Counted from the stretch's first letter, positions 19,492 to 27,995 are shown. The stretch is 64,000 bases of DNA from Chloroflexota bacterium (GCA_005889275.1 VBFI01000044.1:22509-86508); one strand, 5' to 3'. Program-made: numbers and translations. Notes: a model not told the origin generated them from the letters alone.

Positions 19492-19953
19492 GTGAAGCGC
19501 ACGCTCACGGTGAATGGCGCCGGCCGCGAGGTCGATGTCGCGCCGAGCGTCTCGCTTCTCTCGGCGCTACGGGACGACCTGGGCTTGACCGCGACGCGCT
19601 ACGGCTGCGGCCGCGGGCAGTGCGGCGCCTGCTACGTGATCGCCGACGGGCGGGCCGTGGCCTCGTGCCTGCTCACCGTCGACCAGGCGGCGCGGATGGA
19701 GATCACGACCGTGGAGGGCCTGGCGACGGACGGGACGCTCAGCCCGGTGCAGCAGGCGTTCGCCGACCTCGACGCGATGCAGTGCGGGTACTGCACGAGC
19801 GGCATGCTCATCTCCGCGACCGCCCTTCTCGACCGCGACCCGGAGCCCGACGAGGCGGAGGTGCGCGACGCGCTCGCCGGCAATCTGTGCCGCTGCGGCG
19901 TCTACGGCCGTGCGATCCGCGCCGTGCTCACGGCGGCGGAGGCGCTTCGTTGA
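19492..19953 (+). CDS. (2Fe-2S)-binding small subunit of a xanthine-dehydrogenase-family molybdoenzyme
   Basis: CGRGQCGAC...CQCGYCTSGM...CRCGVY motifs. GTG 19492. Confidence 0.85.
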   Translation: MKRTLTVNGAGREVDVAPSVSLLSALRDDLGLTATRYGCGRGQCGACYVIADGRAVASCLLTVDQAARMEITTVEGLATDGTLSPVQQAFADLDAMQCGYCTSGMLISATALLDRDPEPDEAEVRDALAGNLCRCGVYGRAIRAVLTAAEALR

Positions 19954-21941
19954 GCGGCTGGGGCGAGGAGCGCCGCGAGGACCTCGCGCAGCGCATCCGC
20001 GTGGAGCCCGACGGCACGGTCGTCGCCCTCTCCGGCAAGATCGACTTCGGACAGGGGATCCGCACCGCGTTCGCGCAGATCGTGGCCGACGAGATCGACG
20101 TGCCCATCGAGCACGTGCGCGTGGTCCTGGGCGACACCGCCGAGACGCCGTTCGATTTCGGCACGTTCGGCAGTCACTCGGTGGCGCAGGAGGCGCCGCT
20201 GCTGCGGAAGGCGGCGGCGTTCGCGCGGCGTCAGCTCATCGAGCGCGCCGCTCGCAGGCTCGCGCTCGGCGCCGAGCGCCTCGACACGGAAGCCGGCGCG
20301 GTCGTCGGCGGAGGCCGGCGCATCGCCTACGGCGAACTCGTCGACGGCAGGCACCTCGCGGGTCCCATCCCCGACGAGGTCCCGCTCATGCCGCCGGCGC
20401 GCCGCCGCTACAGCGGTCAGCCGATGCCGCGGCTCGAGGCGCGCGACATCGTGACGGGACGAGCGACCTACGTCGCCGACCTCCGTCTCGACGGAATGCT
20501 CCGCGGTGCGATCGCCCGCCCGCCGTCGCGCGGCGCGAAGGTCCGTTCGGTCGACGACGCGAGCGCGCGGAAGCTCCCGGGCGTCGTCGCCGTCGTCCGG
20601 GATGGGGACGTGGTCGGGGTCGTCGCCGAGCGCGACGAGCAAGCGCGCGCGGCGGCCGCGGCCCTCGAGATCGACTGGGAGATCACGCCGCTCGAAGGCC
20701 CGAGCGCCGAGGTGCCGATGCGCCAGGATCCCGGCGTCGACGCGGCGCTCGCGAAGGCCGCGAAGCAGGTTGAGCGAACCTACGTCCTGCCACCGATCGC
20801 GAACGCCCCGATCGGACCGAGCGCGGCCGTCGCCGACGTCCGCGCCGACGGCGCCACGGTGTACGTGGGTACCCATCGCCCGTTCGGGATCCGCGAGCAG
20901 GTCGCGAAGACGATCGGCCTGGAGACCGCGAGCGTACGCGTCGTCCCGCTGATCACGAGCGGCACCTACGGTCGCAACACCCTGGGCGACGCGACGCTCG
21001 AGGCCGCGATCCTCAGCAAGGGAGCGCGGCGCCCGGTCCTCCTGCAGTGGACGCGCGAGGAGGAGTTCGCGTGGTCGCCGTCCCGGCCCGAGGCGGTGCT
21101 CGAGGTGAGCGCGGGACTCGACGACGGCGGTCGCATCCTCGCGTGGCGCTACGAGGAGCACACGAACGTCCACACCGCCGCCGGGCTCGAGCCTCGCGTC
21201 CTCGGCATGACCTCCGGCCGGAACGCGATCCCGCCTTACGCGATCCCGAGCGCGTCCGTCGTGCTGCGCATCGAGCCGACGCGACTGCGCACGGCGAACT
21301 TTCGCTCGCTCGCGGCGTCGGAGAACGTCTTCGCGATCGAATCGTTCATGGACGAGCTCGCGAGCGAGACGAAGCAGGACCCGCTCGCCTTCCGCCTCCG
21401 CCACATCGCCGATCCGCGCCTGCGGCGGGTCGTGGAGCGGGTCGCCGAGCGGAGCGGCTTCGGCGAAGGGCCGGGCGAGCGTCGCGGCCGTGGGATCGCG
21501 TGCACGATCTATCACGACACGTACGTCGCGCAGGTGGCCGAGGTCGAGGTCTCGCCCGCTGGCGCCGTGCGCCTGGTTCGCGTCTGGTGTGTCGTCGATC
21601 CGGGCGAGGTGCTCAACCCCGATGGCGTGCGCAATCAGGTCGAAGGCGGGATCCAGCAGTCGGCGTCGTGGACGCTCCTCGAGGAGCTGCACCACCGTGA
21701 CGGCCGCGTGGTGACCACCGGGTGGGACGCCTACCCGATCGCCACGTTCCGCGATGCGCCGGAGTCGATCGACGTCCTGGTCGAGGGGGACCCCGCTGCG
21801 CCGCCCACCGGCGTCGGCGAGCCCGGCGCGGTGCCGATCGCCGCCGCGATCGCGAACGCGGTCTACGCCGCGTGCGGGGCGCGCGTCCGGGAGCTGCCGA
21901 TCACCCGCGACCGGGTGCGGAAGGCGATCGCCGGCCGCTAA
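19950..21941 (+). CDS. molybdopterin-binding large subunit (aldehyde oxidase/xanthine dehydrogenase family, IorB-like)
   Basis: KIDFGQGIRTAFAQIVADEIDVPIEHVRVVLGDTAETPFD... The TTG start at 19950 overlaps the small-subunit stop (TTGA). No FAD-binding medium subunit nearby. Confidence 0.8.
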   Translation: MSGWGEERREDLAQRIRVEPDGTVVALSGKIDFGQGIRTAFAQIVADEIDVPIEHVRVVLGDTAETPFDFGTFGSHSVAQEAPLLRKAAAFARRQLIERAARRLALGAERLDTEAGAVVGGGRRIAYGELVDGRHLAGPIPDEVPLMPPARRRYSGQPMPRLEARDIVTGRATYVADLRLDGMLRGAIARPPSRGAKVRSVDDASARKLPGVVAVVRDGDVVGVVAERDEQARAAAAALEIDWEITPLEGPSAEVPMRQDPGVDAALAKAAKQVERTYVLPPIANAPIGPSAAVADVRADGATVYVGTHRPFGIREQVAKTIGLETASVRVVPLITSGTYGRNTLGDATLEAAILSKGARRPVLLQWTREEEFAWSPSRPEAVLEVSAGLDDGGRILAWRYEEHTNVHTAAGLEPRVLGMTSGRNAIPPYAIPSASVVLRIEPTRLRTANFRSLAASENVFAIESFMDELASETKQDPLAFRLRHIADPRLRRVVERVAERSGFGEGPGERRGRGIACTIYHDTYVAQVAEVEVSPAGAVRLVRVWCVVDPGEVLNPDGVRNQVEGGIQQSASWTLLEELHHRDGRVVTTGWDAYPIATFRDAPESIDVLVEGDPAAPPTGVGEPGAVPIAAAIANAVYAACGARVRELPITRDRVRKAIAGR

Positions 21942-22801
21942 CGCTCCGGGCGGACGGTCTTCGGAGGCAGCTGCGGCGCGGGCCCGTACGGCACCGGGAT
22001 GAACTCGACTCCCGGACGCCGCTGCGTCGCCTGTGGGAAGAGATCCATGACGTCGTAGATCTCGCGCGGCATGTCCTCGCGCACGTCGATGCCGAGCGTG
22101 CGCAGCTCCTCGACGCCGAGCGCGTAGTCGTGCGTCCACTCGCCCGTCGCGAGCTTCGTCGCGATCCGCTCGGCGTCGGGCTCGCTGTGGTGCTCGAGCA
22201 GGAGCATCTTCACGGTCGCTTTCACCTGGCGGAGCGCCTTCTCGGCGAGGTCGCCGAGGATCAGGGTCTGGTCCTCGCGATTCGGATTTGGCTGCGCGAG
22301 GGCCTTCATGATCGACGCCGCCGAGAACGAAGCCTGCGGCGTGCCGAGCTGCGGATCGACCGGACCGAGGACGGCGTTCGCGTCCATGACGATCTCGTCC
22401 GCGGAGAGGGCGACGAGCGCGCCCCCGGACATCGCGTAGTGAGGCACGAAGACGGTGACCTTGCCCTTGTGCCGTTTCAGCGCGAACGCGATCTGCTCGG
22501 CCGCGAGCACGAGCCCGCCGGGGGTATGCAGAAGGAGATCGATGCCGAGGTCGGGCGGCGTGAGCCGGATCGCGCGCAGGACCTGCTCGGAGTCTTCGAT
22601 GTCGATGTAGCGGGCGATCGGGAAGCCGAGGAAGCTCATCGTCTCCTGTCGATGGATCATCGAGATGAAACGGGTTCCCCGCTTGTGTTCGAGATCGGTG
22701 AACTTGCGGTTGCGGCGCAGCTCGAGCATCTGCTTCTGGTACAGCGGGATGAAGAACTGGCCAAGGATGAAAAGCCAGAAGAGCCAGGAGATGTCGAACA
22801 C
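21938..22801 (-). CDS. serine dehydrogenase proteinase (SDH/ClpP-class, S49-like) family membrane protein
   Basis: FWLFILGQFFIPL...ISMIHRQETMSFLGFPIARYIDIEDSEQVLRAI...HTPGG...MSGGALVA matches Pfam SDH_sah. GTG 22801 with AAGGAG upstream. The rest of the tracked 557-aa ORF is junk. Confidence 0.7.
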   Translation of the reverse strand: MFDISWLFWLFILGQFFIPLYQKQMLELRRNRKFTDLEHKRGTRFISMIHRQETMSFLGFPIARYIDIEDSEQVLRAIRLTPPDLGIDLLLHTPGGLVLAAEQIAFALKRHKGKVTVFVPHYAMSGGALVALSADEIVMDANAVLGPVDPQLGTPQASFSAASIMKALAQPNPNREDQTLILGDLAEKALRQVKATVKMLLLEHHSEPDAERIATKLATGEWTHDYALGVEELRTLGIDVREDMPREIYDVMDLFPQATQRRPGVEFIPVPYGPAPQLPPKTVRPER

Positions 22802-22846
22802 CGCCGTACAGGATGCTCCTTTCGCTGGTCCGTATCGTTCAGGGCG

Positions 22847-23587
22847 GTGGTCGCGCCCCGAGCCGTCATCTTCGATCTCGGCGGGACGCTCGTGCACTGG
22901 TCCGACTGGGACACCGGCGCCGACCAGAAGTGGGCAGCCTCGTACGATCAGCTCGTCACCCAGTTCGCCGACCGCCGCTGGCCGTCGCGCGAGGCGTACG
23001 TCATGGCGATGCGCGAGGCCGAGCGCGAGCACTGGCGTCGCGTCGATACCGAGCACTGGAGCGGCCCGCCGACCGGCCTCGTCCGGGTCGGCTTCGATCG
23101 CCTGGGCGTCCCCGTCAGCGGCGCCGAGCTCCTCGGCGCGATGGACGGCTACGCGAAAGCGATCGCGGGATGGTCGACCGTCGATCCGGACGCGATGCCG
23201 ACGCTCGCGCTCCTGCGCGAGCGCGGCTACCGGCTCGGGCTCCTGTCGAACACGTGGTGGGCGGCCGACTGGCACAACGCGGACCTCGCGACGCATGGGC
23301 TCGCCGGCCTCATCGACGTCATCGTGTACACGTCGGATCTCCCGCATTCGAAGCCGCATCGCAGCGTGTTCCACGAGGTCGCGCAGCGGCTCGACGTCAC
23401 GCCCGAGGAGTGCGTGATGATCGGCGACCGCATGGTCGACGACGTGTCCGGAGCGCTCGCGGTCGGCATGCGCGGCGTCTGGCGCAAGAACGCGTCCGGT
23501 TTCCCGTCGTCGATCGCGGTGCCGACCGCTGAGGTCGAACGTCTCTCGGAGCTGCCCGCGCTTCTGCAGAAGTGGGGAGGGGCGTAG
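22847..23587 (+). CDS. HAD-superfamily hydrolase
   Basis: VIFDLGGTLV (motif I), LLSNT (motif II), GDRMVDDV (motif IV). GTG 22847. Confidence 0.75.
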   Translation: MVAPRAVIFDLGGTLVHWSDWDTGADQKWAASYDQLVTQFADRRWPSREAYVMAMREAEREHWRRVDTEHWSGPPTGLVRVGFDRLGVPVSGAELLGAMDGYAKAIAGWSTVDPDAMPTLALLRERGYRLGLLSNTWWAADWHNADLATHGLAGLIDVIVYTSDLPHSKPHRSVFHEVAQRLDVTPEECVMIGDRMVDDVSGALAVGMRGVWRKNASGFPSSIAVPTAEVERLSELPALLQKWGGA

Positions 23588-24105
23588 TGGACGTGCGCCG
23601 ACGCTGCGCATGGGCTTCGCGAGAGCCGCTTCGCTCGTATCACGATCGCGAGTGGGGAACGCCGCAGCACGCCGATCGACCGCTCTTCGAGTTTCTCGTG
23701 CTCGAGGGCATGCAGGCCGGCCTCTCGTGGGAGACGGTCCTTCGCAAGCGGGCGGCGTTCCGCCGCGCCTTCGCGAGGTTCGCTCCGGCCAAGGTCGCGT
23801 CGTTCGGTTCCCGCGACGTGACCCGCCTCCTGAAGGACACGGGCATCATCCGCAACCGGGCGAAGATCGAGGCCGCCGTCGCCAACGCGAGGGCGTTCCT
23901 CACGGTCCAGAGGGAGTTCGGAACGTTCGACGCCTACGTCTGGCGGTTCACCGACAAGGACAAGCTCTCAAAGGAGCTACGCGCGCGTGGCTTCCGCTTC
24001 GTCGGCCCGACCATCGTCGAATCGTTCATGCAGGCGGTCGGCATCCGCAACGACCACGAGCGCGGCTGCTACCGCTGGTCGGAGCTGCGCGCCCTCGCGC
24101 GGTAG
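23587..24105 (+). CDS. tag: DNA-3-methyladenine glycosylase I
   Basis: RCAWASREPLRSYHDREWGTPQHADRPLFEFLVLEGMQAGLSWETVLRKR matches Tag. GTG 23587 with GGGAGGGG upstream, overlapping the HAD stop. Confidence 0.9.
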   Translation: MDVRRRCAWASREPLRSYHDREWGTPQHADRPLFEFLVLEGMQAGLSWETVLRKRAAFRRAFARFAPAKVASFGSRDVTRLLKDTGIIRNRAKIEAAVANARAFLTVQREFGTFDAYVWRFTDKDKLSKELRARGFRFVGPTIVESFMQAVGIRNDHERGCYRWSELRALAR

Positions 24106-24107
24106 GC

Positions 24108-24147
24108 CGGGGGAGCTGCTGACGCGATCGCCGCGGCGTCAGCCCCC
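24108..24147. terminator. GC-rich hairpin between the convergent tag and hypothetical genes
   Basis: GGGGG-AGCT-GCTGACGC gatcgccgcg GCGTCAGC-CCCC. An 8-bp perfect stem is extended by G/C pairs. No U-tract follows. Confidence 0.3.
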
Positions 24148-24214
24148 GAGAGCGGTGAGTCGGACGATCGGAATCTGGCGACACATCGCCTCCCCGCGCG
24201 CCAGCTGCCGGCGC

Positions 24215-24691
24215 TCACGCCGCCACGGCTTCGGCCGGCCCATCGCGCAGCGGGCGCAGCCCGCGGCAGGAGATTCCGCTCGTCACCATGTGGAACAGCT
24301 CCTCGGCCGCCCAGCCGATGTCGTCGAACAAGATGCCCTCGTAGTGGTGGTCCGCGGCGCCGGGCGGCGTCTCGCAGTGACGGTGCGGCACGTCGTCATG
24401 CCAGTGGTACGCGAAACGACCACTCGGACGCGGCGCAAGGTGCAGGTCGTAGAGGTAGGCGTACCGCTCGGGGTCGGGATCCCACAGGTGCTTCTCGATG
24501 AACACCAGCGTCGCGATCTGCGGCAAACCCCATCCCGGGATGTCGACGCGCACCAAGAGTTTCGTGGTGTCGCCGTTCGGACCGTTGGTCGTGCCGTAGG
24601 AGACCTGGCCGTACCGACCCGTGAATGCCTTCACGATCTCCTCGAGGCGCTGGTGGTATTCCTGGGCCATCAGACGTTGGCCGGATCTCAC
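24215..24691 (-). CDS. hypothetical protein (His-rich HWHDD..HRH motifs)
   Basis: 158 aa with no recognised family. The GTG start overlaps the upstream HTH gene stop (GTGA), so the two form a two-gene cassette. Alternative ATG at 24670. Confidence 0.5.
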   Translation of the reverse strand: MRSGQRLMAQEYHQRLEEIVKAFTGRYGQVSYGTTNGPNGDTTKLLVRVDIPGWGLPQIATLVFIEKHLWDPDPERYAYLYDLHLAPRPSGRFAYHWHDDVPHRHCETPPGAADHHYEGILFDDIGWAAEELFHMVTSGISCRGLRPLRDGPAEAVAA

Positions 24692-24978
24692 CGAGCGACG
24701 ACGGGCCGTCGCTTCCGCCGGTCCTCGTCGATCGCGAGGTCCGAGCCGTCAATCGTGATGCGCCTCGGCTTGGCCGCTTCCGGGTTGAGCCGGCTCACCA
24801 CGGCGGCGAGCGGGATGCGGTAGGTCTTCGGACCGAGCTTCACGGCGTAGAGCTCTTTCCGGTGGATCCAGTCCATCACCGTGGAGGGATCCACCTCGAT
24901 GAGCGTCGCCAGCTCGGTCGGCGTGTAGAACGGCTTTGGCTCGAACCCCAGTACCGCGCCCGCCTCCATATCCGGCAT
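24688..24978 (-). CDS. excisionase/MerR-like helix-turn-helix (HTH_17) DNA-binding protein
   Basis: FYTPTELATLIEVDPSTVMDWIHRKELYAVKLGPKTYRIPLAAV. ATG at 24978 or 24969, with GGAGG adjacent. Confidence 0.65.
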   Translation of the reverse strand: MPDMEAGAVLGFEPKPFYTPTELATLIEVDPSTVMDWIHRKELYAVKLGPKTYRIPLAAVVSRLNPEAAKPRRITIDGSDLAIDEDRRKRRPVVAR

Positions 24979-24990
24979 ATCCTCCAAAAC

Positions 24991-25017
24991 TGTATATGGC
25001 GTATTTGGCGTTGTCAA
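24991..25017 (-). promoter_or_regulatory. sigma-70-like promoter (TTGACA-N15-TATACA) for the HTH/hypothetical cassette
   Basis: On the minus strand: TTGACA acgccaaatacgcca TATACA gtttt GGAGG at ATG. It sits in a locally AT-rich patch at about 24985-25050. Confidence 0.4.
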
Positions 25018-25095
25018 GCCACCGCATCCCAACACTCGATCTGGACCTGCTTCGACGAGCCAAGCCGACCACGGAGCGCGCCTCTGGCAGGTCGG

Positions 25096-26271
25096 CTACC
25101 GCGGCGGTGAGAAGCTGAAGAGCGCTCCCTCGTTGGGATTCTGGTCCTGCGTATAGATCACGTCGTTCGCCTCGTCGTACGCGACCCCATGCGCCCCGAC
25201 CGCGGTCGGGATATTCGTCACGAACGCGATCGGATTGCCCTTGAAGATCGACATGACTCCACCGCGATTGAAGTTCGAGGCGGCGAAGAAGAAGCGGTCG
25301 GCCTTCGCACTGTAGAAGACGCCGTCGCCAGCACCAGTCTGGTCGAACGTCGTCAGGACTTTCCCGCCGGCGAGGTCCCAGGAGACGGCGATTGGCACGG
25401 CTCTCGCGCTGCAGCCGAGAAGCGCCTGATTCGTCGTCGGGTTGATGGCGAGCCCGTTCGGGCTGCACTTCGCGACGACGTCGTACTTCTGGACCATGGT
25501 GTCCTTCGTCGGGTCGAACTTGAACACGGCGTTCTGCACGGAGCTCGTCATGTACATCATGCCGTCGGCTGAGTCGTAGCGCGGCTGCTCGAGGCCCTCG
25601 CCCAGGTTGTCGAACTTCTTGACGATCGCGTTCGTCGACGCGTCGATGACCGTGACGATGCCGTCGTCGCTGTTCGCGATGTAGATCTTCTTGTCCTTCG
25701 AGTCGTAGTCGAGCTCGTCGGCACGCATCTTCCCGCCGGTGCTGACCTTCGCGATCACCGTGTCCGTCGTTGACGACCCCGGCGCGATGTCGATGATGGC
25801 GACGTTGCTGTCGTTCAGCCCCGCGAAGATCTTGTTCACGTTCTTCGCGACGACGACGCCGTTCGGACCGCTGCCCGTCGCGATCGTCTTCACGTACTTC
25901 GCGCAGGAGGTCGCGACGTCGAACACGTCGATCCCGTTGTCGGTGCGGTCCGTCACGTAGAGGCGATGCGCGGCCTGGTCGATCTCCATGATGTCGATCG
26001 AGGCGGTCTTGCCGGCGATCGGCGGGATGGGGATCTTCGCGACCGCGAGGAGCGTCGTGTTCGCGGCGATCGCGGGAAGCAGCGTGGGCGCCGGTGTCCC
26101 CGCGCTCGGCGCGGGCGCGGTCACCGGTCCGAGCGTCGGACACGGCGACGCGGTCGGGGCGGGCGTCGCAGAGGCCGCGACCGGGGTCGCGGTCGGCGTC
26201 GTCGCGGCGGGAGCGTTCGCGGCGCACGATACGATCACGAGCGACGCCGCGAGAAGGCTCACCCCACGCAC
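25096..26271 (-). CDS. YVTN-family beta-propeller repeat lipoprotein
   Basis: Signal with lipobox (LLAASLVIVSC). Repeated YVTDRTDNGIDVFD / IYIANSDDGIVTVID beta-propeller blades. GTG 26271. The overlapping 513-aa ORF is an artefact. Confidence 0.7.
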   Translation of the reverse strand: MRGVSLLAASLVIVSCAANAPAATTPTATPVAASATPAPTASPCPTLGPVTAPAPSAGTPAPTLLPAIAANTTLLAVAKIPIPPIAGKTASIDIMEIDQAAHRLYVTDRTDNGIDVFDVATSCAKYVKTIATGSGPNGVVVAKNVNKIFAGLNDSNVAIIDIAPGSSTTDTVIAKVSTGGKMRADELDYDSKDKKIYIANSDDGIVTVIDASTNAIVKKFDNLGEGLEQPRYDSADGMMYMTSSVQNAVFKFDPTKDTMVQKYDVVAKCSPNGLAINPTTNQALLGCSARAVPIAVSWDLAGGKVLTTFDQTGAGDGVFYSAKADRFFFAASNFNRGGVMSIFKGNPIAFVTNIPTAVGAHGVAYDEANDVIYTQDQNPNEGALFSFSPPR

Positions 26272-26324
26272 GCGCGAGAGTGTGGGGCACGCCAGGCGAG
26301 CGACCGGTTGCAGATTTGCGCGGC

Positions 26325-27995
26325 TCAGCTCCCCCGACGATGGATCACCCGGCCGCCCAGGATCGTCATGTCGACCTCCGTCGAGGCGATGTCTCGGGCG
26401 CCCAGCGGCAGGATGTCGCGCGAGAGGACCACGAGGTCGGCGAGCTTGCCCAGGGCGATGCTTCCCCTTTGGTCCTCCTCGTACGACGCGTACGCCGGAT
26501 TGATCGTGTACGCGGCGATGGCCTCCTCGACCGTGAGCGCCTCTTCGGGATGCCATGCACGCTCGACCGCGAGCGCGATGTTCTGCAGTGGCGCGAGCGG
26601 GGTGGCGCGCTGCTCGTTGAAGCTCCCGGGCCAGTCCGACACCAGGTCGAGCCGCGCGCCGGCGTCGCGGAGCGAGCGCCAGGCGTGCGCGGTCTTCGCG
26701 CGCTCCGGTCCCAGGCGCCGCTCGACCGTCCGCATGTCGTTCACGAGGTGCTGCGGGGTGACGTCGACGATGAGCCCGAGCTTCCCGATGCGCTCGATCT
26801 CGCGAGCGCTCGGGTACCAGGCGTGGATCACGCGGAAGCGGCGGTCACGCGGCGGATTGGCGCGGATCGCGGCCTCGTACCAGTCGAGAAGGAGCCGGTG
26901 CGCCTTGTCGCCGATGGTGTGCACGACCGGATCGAAGCCGGCGGCGTCCGCGCCCGCGATGTCCGCGGCCATCGTCTCCTCGTCGACGAAACGGAAGGTG
27001 AACGAACCGGCGTAGTCGGGCTCATTCGCGTACGGGGCGTCCATGAGGAATCCATCGATGAACGCCTTGAGGCCGCCGAAGCGGATGCGGCCCTCGTCCG
27101 TCCGCGGGCGAACGCCACATGCGAGCACGTCTCGCCACACCGCGAGCGTCAGGAACGCGTAGACACGCATCGTGAGCCGGCCCCGCCGCTGCAGCTCGCG
27201 GAAGAGCGCGAGGTCGGTCGCGCTCCGTTCGACGTCGGTGTGGAACAGGTGCCGTCGCGAAACCTCGTCGAGCCGGGTCACGTCGTGGATCCCGGTGATC
27301 CCCGCGCGGCGCAGCTCCTCGAGCGCCGACTCCGCCCCCGCGACCATGAGCTCGAGATTCGCCGGCGGCATGAGCTCGGCCATCCGCTCCCCCGCACGCC
27401 CGAGGAGGATGCCAGTCGGCATACCGTCGGCATCGCGCCGGATCTCGCCGCCCCGAGGGTCAGGTGCGCGCCGGTCGAGACGGGCGCGGGCGAGCGCGAG
27501 CGAGTTCGCGACGTAGGCGCCGTCGACGCGGCGCAGCAGGATCGGGTGATCGGGGGCCACGGCATCGAGGCGCCGTCGGTCGATCGGCATCGGCGCGGGC
27601 CGTGGCGCCCCTTTCTCGTCGGCGGCCCACGCCGCGGCGGCATCGAGATCGCCGCCCGTGAGCCACAGGCCTTTCGGTACCCGACGCGCCGACGTCGCGA
27701 TCTTCTCGAGCACCGCGTCGGCGTCGCGCTCCTCGTAGAGGCCGACGCGGAAGGTCCAAGCCGCGGCGTTGCCGAAGTGCGTGTGCGCGTCGATGAACCC
27801 GGGAAGCGCCAGGCGGCCGGCCAGCTCGACGACCTCGGTCCGCGGTCCGGCGAGGGGCCGGAGATCCTCGTCGGTACCCACGGCGACGATGCGCTCGCCG
27901 CGGACCGCCACCGCCCGCGCCTCGGGCCGTCGTGGGTCGACGGTCCATACGCGGCCTCCGCGCAGGATGAGGTCGGCCGGTTCGGCCGTGCTCAG
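26325..27995 (-). CDS. amidohydrolase-family (Amidohydro_3, metal-dependent TIM-barrel) hydrolase
   Basis: PGFIDAHTHF, HTIGDKA and C-terminal ALGKLADLVVL motifs. The conserved N-terminus (AEPADLILRGGRVWTVDP) extends upstream of the first GTG (27911). The likely start is CTG 27995, overlapping the upstream stop (CTGA). Confidence 0.75.
   Translation of the reverse strand: MSTAEPADLILRGGRVWTVDPRRPEARAVAVRGERIVAVGTDEDLRPLAGPRTEVVELAGRLALPGFIDAHTHFGNAAAWTFRVGLYEERDADAVLEKIATSARRVPKGLWLTGGDLDAAAAWAADEKGAPRPAPMPIDRRRLDAVAPDHPILLRRVDGAYVANSLALARARLDRRAPDPRGGEIRRDADGMPTGILLGRAGERMAELMPPANLELMVAGAESALEELRRAGITGIHDVTRLDEVSRRHLFHTDVERSATDLALFRELQRRGRLTMRVYAFLTLAVWRDVLACGVRPRTDEGRIRFGGLKAFIDGFLMDAPYANEPDYAGSFTFRFVDEETMAADIAGADAAGFDPVVHTIGDKAHRLLLDWYEAAIRANPPRDRRFRVIHAWYPSAREIERIGKLGLIVDVTPQHLVNDMRTVERRLGPERAKTAHAWRSLRDAGARLDLVSDWPGSFNEQRATPLAPLQNIALAVERAWHPEEALTVEEAIAAYTINPAYASYEEDQRGSIALGKLADLVVLSRDILPLGARDIASTEVDMTILGGRVIHRRGS

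Follow-up and report, generated by a model that had tools for sequence, protein, structure and literature searches.

The described systems closest to the locus reported here are bicistronic modules with a small DNA-binding partner. TumE (DUF6516) consists of two helices packed on a seven-stranded antiparallel sheet with no match in the PDB, is encoded in a bicistronic unit, usually downstream of its DNA-binding partner, and is experimentally toxic, neutralized by that partner and inhibitory to translation (Durairaj et al., 2023; PMC10584680). Truncated MerR-like helix-turn-helix (HTH) proteins, on the other hand, are an established class of antitoxins paired with PIN toxins (Makarova, Wolf and Koonin, 2009; PMC2701414). 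Here, we analyzed a 64,000-nucleotide stretch of DNA from a Chloroflexota bacterium (GCA_005889275.1, VBFI01000044.1:22509-86508; hereafter the window), which carries a cassette of two overlapping genes, one for an HTH protein and the other for a protein of 158 residues (X158). We give an even chance to the reading that this cassette is an autoregulated, horizontally mobile type II toxin-antitoxin (TA)-like module with a new effector family.

The evidence that carries this reading is comparative. A homologous HTH gene was found directly upstream of the X158 relative in all 14 independent contexts (loci bear L numbers), even where identity falls to 23-35%. In the close clade, it is immediately upstream in 14 of the 14 loci first fetched, which represent seven independent contexts including the window, several loci being copies of one context. 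The HTH and X158 proteins of this clade are each ∼55-65% identical to the window copies and have diverged at a similar rate. Eight more contexts, with members 23-35% identical, have a gene for 97-131 residues directly upstream, separated by 0-3 nucleotides or overlapping. Alignment of six of these distant partners with the window HTH revealed a common core, E+KPFY..(S/T)..(S/T)(V/L)LD.IH...L(Y/F)A..LGP+.(Y/F)RIP, and all six also have the C-terminal motif PRR(I/V)xxD inside a charged tail. The layout, two small co-oriented genes that overlap behind a single upstream promoter, is that of one operon and is repeated at every related locus.

In contrast with the constant pairing, the flanking genes vary: PBP1a/MFS, CopCD/cytochrome c/PmbA, EamA/CN hydrolase, a glycosyltransferase cluster, LexA/ImuB, leu/ilv genes and, in the window, Tag and a beta-propeller protein. 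The clearest evidence for mobility is an insertion polymorphism between L015:4243-10462 and L049:212-5709. These two related contigs share orthologous Amidase_2/CARDB (62% identity over 888 residues) and Kelch-propeller (46%) genes, which overlap by 4 nucleotides in L015 and are separated by an HTH-X158 cassette in L049; L015 has a different cassette (30% identical) a few kilobases away, beside ParE and an AAA_14/DUF4143 ATPase. For the window copy, 16 metagenome contigs with 57-75% identical beta-propeller homologs had neither the cassette nor Tag alongside; none of them shares the window neighborhood, and they thus provide no clean empty site. Other TA or mobile genes lie close to the cassette in five of the 14 contexts (L012, L013, L015, L017 and L021; Table 1), a co-location that is only suggestive.

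The family is also very rare and patchy. A word-indexed search of 5.8 billion proteins yielded 24 relatives of X158, all metagenomic and none with a Pfam domain covering X158, whereas an exhaustive profile search of 1.84 billion representatives yielded 65 clusters, all from metagenomes or metagenome-assembled genomes; a second profile search gave 92. Only four loci could be confirmed in 185,579 species-representative genomes, under the names Candidatus Limnocylindria, Limnocylindrales or Chloroflexi, and the sole named member at NCBI belongs to Limnocylindria. Thus, the cassette has a patchy, horizontally mobile distribution in variable contexts, as type II TA modules do. An earlier note on this DNA, made from the sequence alone, had likened the layout to a small regulator/effector module rather than to housekeeping genes. 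Its view is borne out by the family-wide pairing, the variable flanks, the L015/L049 insertion and the rarity; no housekeeping homolog was found and the pair is not universally syntenic.

The same note had left the choice between a TA-like and a phage-derived origin, and only the first is favored by the comparative evidence. The excisionase-type matches of the HTH gene (TIGR01764 and PHROG 66) and a tyrosine integrase ∼1 kb upstream in L021 would suit a remnant of an integrative element or prophage, in which an excisionase (recombination directionality factor) gene is left next to a cargo gene. We consider such an origin highly improbable. An integrase occurs in just one of the 14 contexts, and the strict coupling to X158 by start/stop overlap throughout the family is not a feature of excisionases. 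In addition, X158 relatives were absent from 50,697 phage records, IMG/VR, the BFVD structures and the plasmid collections searched. Around the window copy, no integrase or transposase is present within ∼8 kb on either side, as the note had remarked, and no tRNA gene or Rfam family at the gathering threshold was detected in the whole 64 kb.

Table 1. Features of the HTH-X158 cassette in the window (positions counted from its first nucleotide) and TA or mobile genes close to related cassettes
Locus	Feature	Position	Strand	Remark
Window	X158 gene	24215..24691	-	158-residue protein; rare unnamed family; proposed effector (toxin)
Window	HTH_17/excisionase-type ('truncated MerR-like') gene	24688..24978	-	96 residues; isoelectric point (pI) 9.1; proposed antitoxin and autorepressor
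Window	GTGA start/stop overlap of HTH and X158 genes	24688..24691	-	
Window	-35 hexamer TTGACA	25012..25017	-	promoter scan
Window	-10 hexamer TACAGT, 17-nucleotide spacer	24989..24994	-	promoter score 10/12 in scan
Window	tandem 9-nucleotide direct repeat GCCAAATAC / GCCATATAC	24992..25009	-	promoter spacer; 89% identity
Window	imperfect inverted repeat ATACGCCA-N10-TGGAGGAT	24979..25004	-	brackets -10; right arm contains GGAGG
L012	AbiEii			directly downstream of cassette
L013	Phd/YefM			upstream of cassette
L015	ParE			adjoins cassette
L017	MazE/PIN and FitA/PIN			near cassette
L021	integrase, CopG, PIN, NA37+RelA_SpoT			near cassette; beside rpsL-rpsG-fusA

The two genes of the window cassette (Table 1) overlap as had been read from the sequence: the GTG start codon of X158 and the TGA stop codon of the HTH gene share the string GTGA. 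The same 4-nucleotide overlap is also present in L001, L003 and L049 and implies translational coupling of X158 to the HTH gene. The GTG start appears to be real because the N-terminus MRxGxRL is conserved in homologs, with G4 invariant in the close clade. For the HTH gene, the mechanical open reading frame (ORF) spans 24688-25035 on the minus strand. Because the GTG of this frame (25035) precedes the promoter, the start is ATG 24978 (MPDMEAG..., 96 residues) or ATG 24969; homologs of 89-99 residues begin at the aligned position.

The HTH protein has a winged-helix DNA-binding domain of the excisionase type: it scored 33 bits against HTH_17 (cut-off 27; E 7.5e-8) and 33.1 bits against TIGR01764 'excise', the excisionase family DNA-binding protein model (cut-off 28.8), and also matched PHROG 66, 'excisionase and transcriptional regulator'. 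Its closest solved sequence is BldC (6ama, E 1.3e-3; 6amk), although it falls far below the BldC subfamily model NF033787 (16.5 bits vs a cut-off of 77). The cassette HTH thus has the HTH_17/TIGR01764 fold in common with BldC and lambda Xis, whose genes differ in having no overlapping obligate partner gene; in addition, no integrase accompanies the window cassette. A relative of the HTH gene on a Sulfobacillus plasmid adjoins an IS110 transposase, which is uninformative. The resemblance to the PIN-MerR(truncated) systems (Makarova, Wolf and Koonin, 2009; PMC2701414) extends further: in both cases, a small HTH protein without a dimerization helix occupies the antitoxin position of a two-gene mobile module and has a short additional segment that is proposed as the toxin contact. 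On the other hand, X158 has neither a PIN nor another known toxin fold, and the putative toxin-binding segment is C-terminal in the cassette HTH, where the charged tail holds the conserved motif PRR[IV]xxD, whereas it is N-terminal in the family of Makarova et al.

The near-consensus promoter claimed by the earlier note is present, with a revised -10 hexamer. It is more than chance: the window has a single occurrence of the pattern TTGACA-N17-TANNNT, and 100 shuffles had none. TTGACA stands, whereas TACAGT with its canonical 17-nucleotide spacer is a better reading of the -10 than the hexamer that had been proposed, TATACA (24991-24996) with a 15-nucleotide spacer. TTGAC is retained at the aligned position of related loci, L011 having TTGGAC. 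GGAGG does follow closely, at 24981-24985, and is part of the right arm of a conserved inverted repeat; it lies only 2 nucleotides from the first ATG, so that the transcript leader would be very short. The arms of this repeat, with matches counted by hand, are perfect in L003 (ATCCGCCA-N10-TGGCGGAT), match at 7/8 in L001 and at 6/8 in the window copy, and the repeat may be an operator.

Head-to-tail binding to direct repeats is known from BldC- and Xis-type proteins, and it fits the tandem 9-mers of the promoter spacer; this direct repeat is a candidate head-to-tail binding site for an HTH protein of the excisionase/BldC type, and its role as an operator is likewise putative. Direct and inverted repeats alike reach into the -35/-10 region, and both are retained in the close-clade loci. 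About 60 nucleotides of upstream DNA are conserved among six of these loci, in which the proteins are merely ∼60% identical. TTGAC and the inverted repeat both fall within this segment, so that the genes move together with their promoter and putative operator. In the distant clade, the promoters have repeats of their own, for example, TTGGTTGGT...ACCAACTAA around the -10 in L018.

The AT-rich patch in which the promoter was said to sit is a real but modest dip in GC content (0.61-0.62 vs 0.70 for the window). It extends through the upstream beta-propeller gene to ∼26000 and is therefore not promoter-specific. Positions 24800-26000 have a GC content of 0.61-0.64 and span the cassette promoter and most of the gene for this YncE-like beta-propeller lipoprotein (25096-26556), which may be a relatively recent acquisition as well. 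At the other end of the cassette, the terminator scan found none in the intergenic region 24100-24220; one hairpin considered there was rejected, its stability being no better than that of shuffles (z 0.70).

As for X158, the observation that it is His-rich (10 of 158 residues; family median 5.8% His) and falls in no recognizable family was correct. No family match was found in Pfam, NCBIfam, PADLOC or PHROGs and no sequence match in the PDB, and Pfam searches with 34 diverse members of the family returned only scattered single weak matches. Family-library, PDB, hidden Markov model (HMM) and profile-profile searches placed X158 in no recognized toxin superfamily. A PDB match to a 'pH gated chloride channel' (E 0.012), obtained with a shallow profile, was regarded as chance because it disappeared with a deeper profile.

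Conservation was computed over 116 sequences, with identity to X158 down to 21-35%. Y79, H96 and C142 are invariant, and P52, E66, W74, R92, A94, H98, H103, H105, C106, H116 and L145 are conserved in at least 90% of sequences. The same 116 sequences raised the predicted local distance difference test (pLDDT) score of the AlphaFold2 model to 89.4, with a predicted template modeling (pTM) score of 0.85, from a pLDDT of 71 with 22 sequences. The model has two helices (residues 9-23 and 125-138) and seven antiparallel strands (28-36, 42-51, 60-71, 73-85, 91-98, 101-107 and 116-118), and no structural neighbor was found in the PDB or among viral structures (BFVD). From the antiparallel strand register of this secondary structure, H96 and H98 on beta5 and H103 and H105 on beta6 would be expected on the same sheet face as E66 on beta3. 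Judging from this model, E66, the five His residues, C106 and C142 would most plausibly form a metal centre or a hydrolytic site.

The predicted secondary-structure content agrees with the published verbal description of TumE, of which the PDB holds no structure. Neither protein has a neighbor in the PDB, and both are encoded with a DNA-binding bicistronic partner and have a conserved patch containing HxH. As we read the alignments, the HxH of both families lies on a late beta-strand; an aromatic strand comes next, and then a C-terminal helix in which Phe follows an acidic residue. X158 could be thought of as a far-diverged TumE-TumA superfamily protein (a remote DUF6516/TumE homolog) that inhibits translation, yet we judge this to be quite improbable. 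None of the 34 family members matched PF20126 (TumE) at E <= 1, whereas a synthetic TumE-like sequence, used as a control, scored 61 bits; the NCBIfam search was negative, too. DUF6516 genes were also taken from plasmids and from a protein collection. Against two TumE alignments, the 116-sequence X158 profile gave hhalign probabilities of 0.16% and 0.07%, and reciprocal unfiltered hmmsearch (--max) did not exceed 7 bits in either direction.

Other differences between X158 and TumE concern length, residues and distribution. X158 is longer by ∼60 residues than the sampled TumE proteins (∼95 residues) and has conserved Cys residues that are missing from the TumE alignment. Moreover, TumE is abundant, with at least 7,999 clusters matched, and occurs on many proteobacterial plasmids, whereas X158 comprises 65 representative clusters, none from plasmids. 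X158 thus fits the TumE description with no homology shown, and TumE is best regarded as its closest functional analog rather than its family. It should be noted that, among the eight proteobacterial plasmid TumE loci sampled here (L024-L031), the toxin gene preceded its partner, annotated as winged-HTH or 'transcriptional regulator', in six, overlapping it in five and with a gap of 2 nucleotides in L027. This order is the opposite of the one called predominant in the published work (PMC10584680).

Several observations weigh against a TA-like module. First, X158 showed no detectable homology to any known toxin in the library, PDB, HMM and profile-profile searches. Second, X158 has a mildly acidic pI (5.9; family median 6.2) and its HTH partners have basic ones (9.1-10.6), which is the reverse of the classical pattern of an acidic antitoxin and a basic toxin; such acidity is also unusual for a toxin that targets RNA or the ribosome. 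Third, the set of five His and two Cys residues fits a metal or redox sensor equally as well as an enzyme. Fourth, no further TA or mobile genes lie close to the window copy. Finally, the stop of the X gene overlaps the start of a 738-residue GT4 gene by 4 nucleotides in L017 and L050, which suggests read-through co-transcription into cargo genes, so that the X gene of these loci may not be part of a stand-alone unit.

Some of these points lead to a different explanation, namely, a non-toxic mobile regulatory switch in which X158 would act as a metal- or redox-sensing co-repressor or anti-repressor of the HTH repressor. The near-invariant H96, H98, H103, H105, C106, H116 and C142 resemble a ligand or metal site, and an acidic X158 with a basic partner would suit a regulatory protein-protein complex. 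Moreover, the closest solved HTH protein, BldC (E 1.3e-3), is a developmental regulator, and the L003 cassette comes after copCD and cytochrome c genes. Nevertheless, copper genes adjoin the cassette in this one context only, and the contexts differ between loci without consistent neighboring target genes. Apart from its own promoter, no DNA moves along with the pair, which would leave a self-regulating sensor without an evident output, and such rarity and mobility are more usual in selfish or defense modules. Thus, we regard the switch as unlikely, while giving it real weight.

If the cassette is instead a TA-like module, as we prefer, it might work as follows. A strong sigma-70-type promoter would drive a bicistronic mRNA with a very short leader, from which X158 would be made by translational coupling through the GTGA overlap. 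The HTH protein would bind the repeats over the -35/-10 region and repress its own operon, whereas its charged C-terminal tail (PRR[IV]xxD) may bind and neutralize X158. When not neutralized, X158 could be harmful through its His/Cys/Glu site, acting as a metal centre or a hydrolytic site. A more specific proposal goes further: X158 and the truncated-MerR HTH may constitute an undescribed family of type II TA (or defense) systems, with a new effector superfamily of unmatched alpha+beta fold and a His/Cys metal centre, moving as a unit of promoter plus two genes, whose few named members come from uncultured soil Chloroflexota (Candidatus Limnocylindria). We put this forward tentatively, since taken as a whole it is somewhat doubtful.

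The immediate neighborhoods of several cassettes showed additional features. In L012:1864-3251, the gene for the AbiEii nucleotidyltransferase toxin (Pfam E 6.7e-18) starts 96 nucleotides past the X158 homolog, a gap too small for a separate AbiEi antitoxin gene. The island at L021:2614-8638 consists, in order, of the tyrosine integrase, the CopG antitoxin, the HTH+X pair and an 83-residue gene followed by PIN, and ends with NA37 and then a RelA_SpoT-domain protein; these last two may form a toxSAS-like module. In L017:4632-7660 and L050:1613-4670, the cassette is embedded in a glycosyltransferase cluster.

In the window, the cassette has as neighbors genes for DAHP synthase, an aromatic amino acid lyase, a molybdoenzyme, an SDH-type protease, a HAD hydrolase and Tag glycosylase, together with those for the YncE-like beta-propeller, an amidohydrolase, an iron permease, a solute-binding protein and an aminotransferase. 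Positions 19620-21941 (plus strand) form one ORF of 773 residues with molybdopterin-enzyme domains in an odd order (part of MoCoBD_2, then Ald_Xan_dh_C, then MoCoBD_1), which is overlapped by an opposite-strand ORF of 745 residues; possible explanations are a gene fusion, a tandem arrangement and an artifact of ORF calling. The lowest GC content in 20-30 kb (0.60) is found at 22550-22850, between the genes for the SDH-type serine protease (minus strand) and the HAD hydrolase (plus strand), and this segment is probably a shared divergent promoter region.

The significance of these results is moderate, as there are many candidate two-gene modules of this type and current understanding is not overturned. 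The cassette is compact (∼0.8 kb including promoter and operator) and directly testable by synthesis, and the conserved His/Cys/Glu set offers ready mutational targets. Should X158 turn out to be non-toxic, the pair would represent the less expected case of a mobile sensor module that regulates itself. If X158 is indeed a toxin, it would add to the type II TA repertoire a new effector family that may depend on a metal, a property uncommon in TA toxins, and it would do so from a major uncultured soil lineage with a barely explored mobile-element biology.
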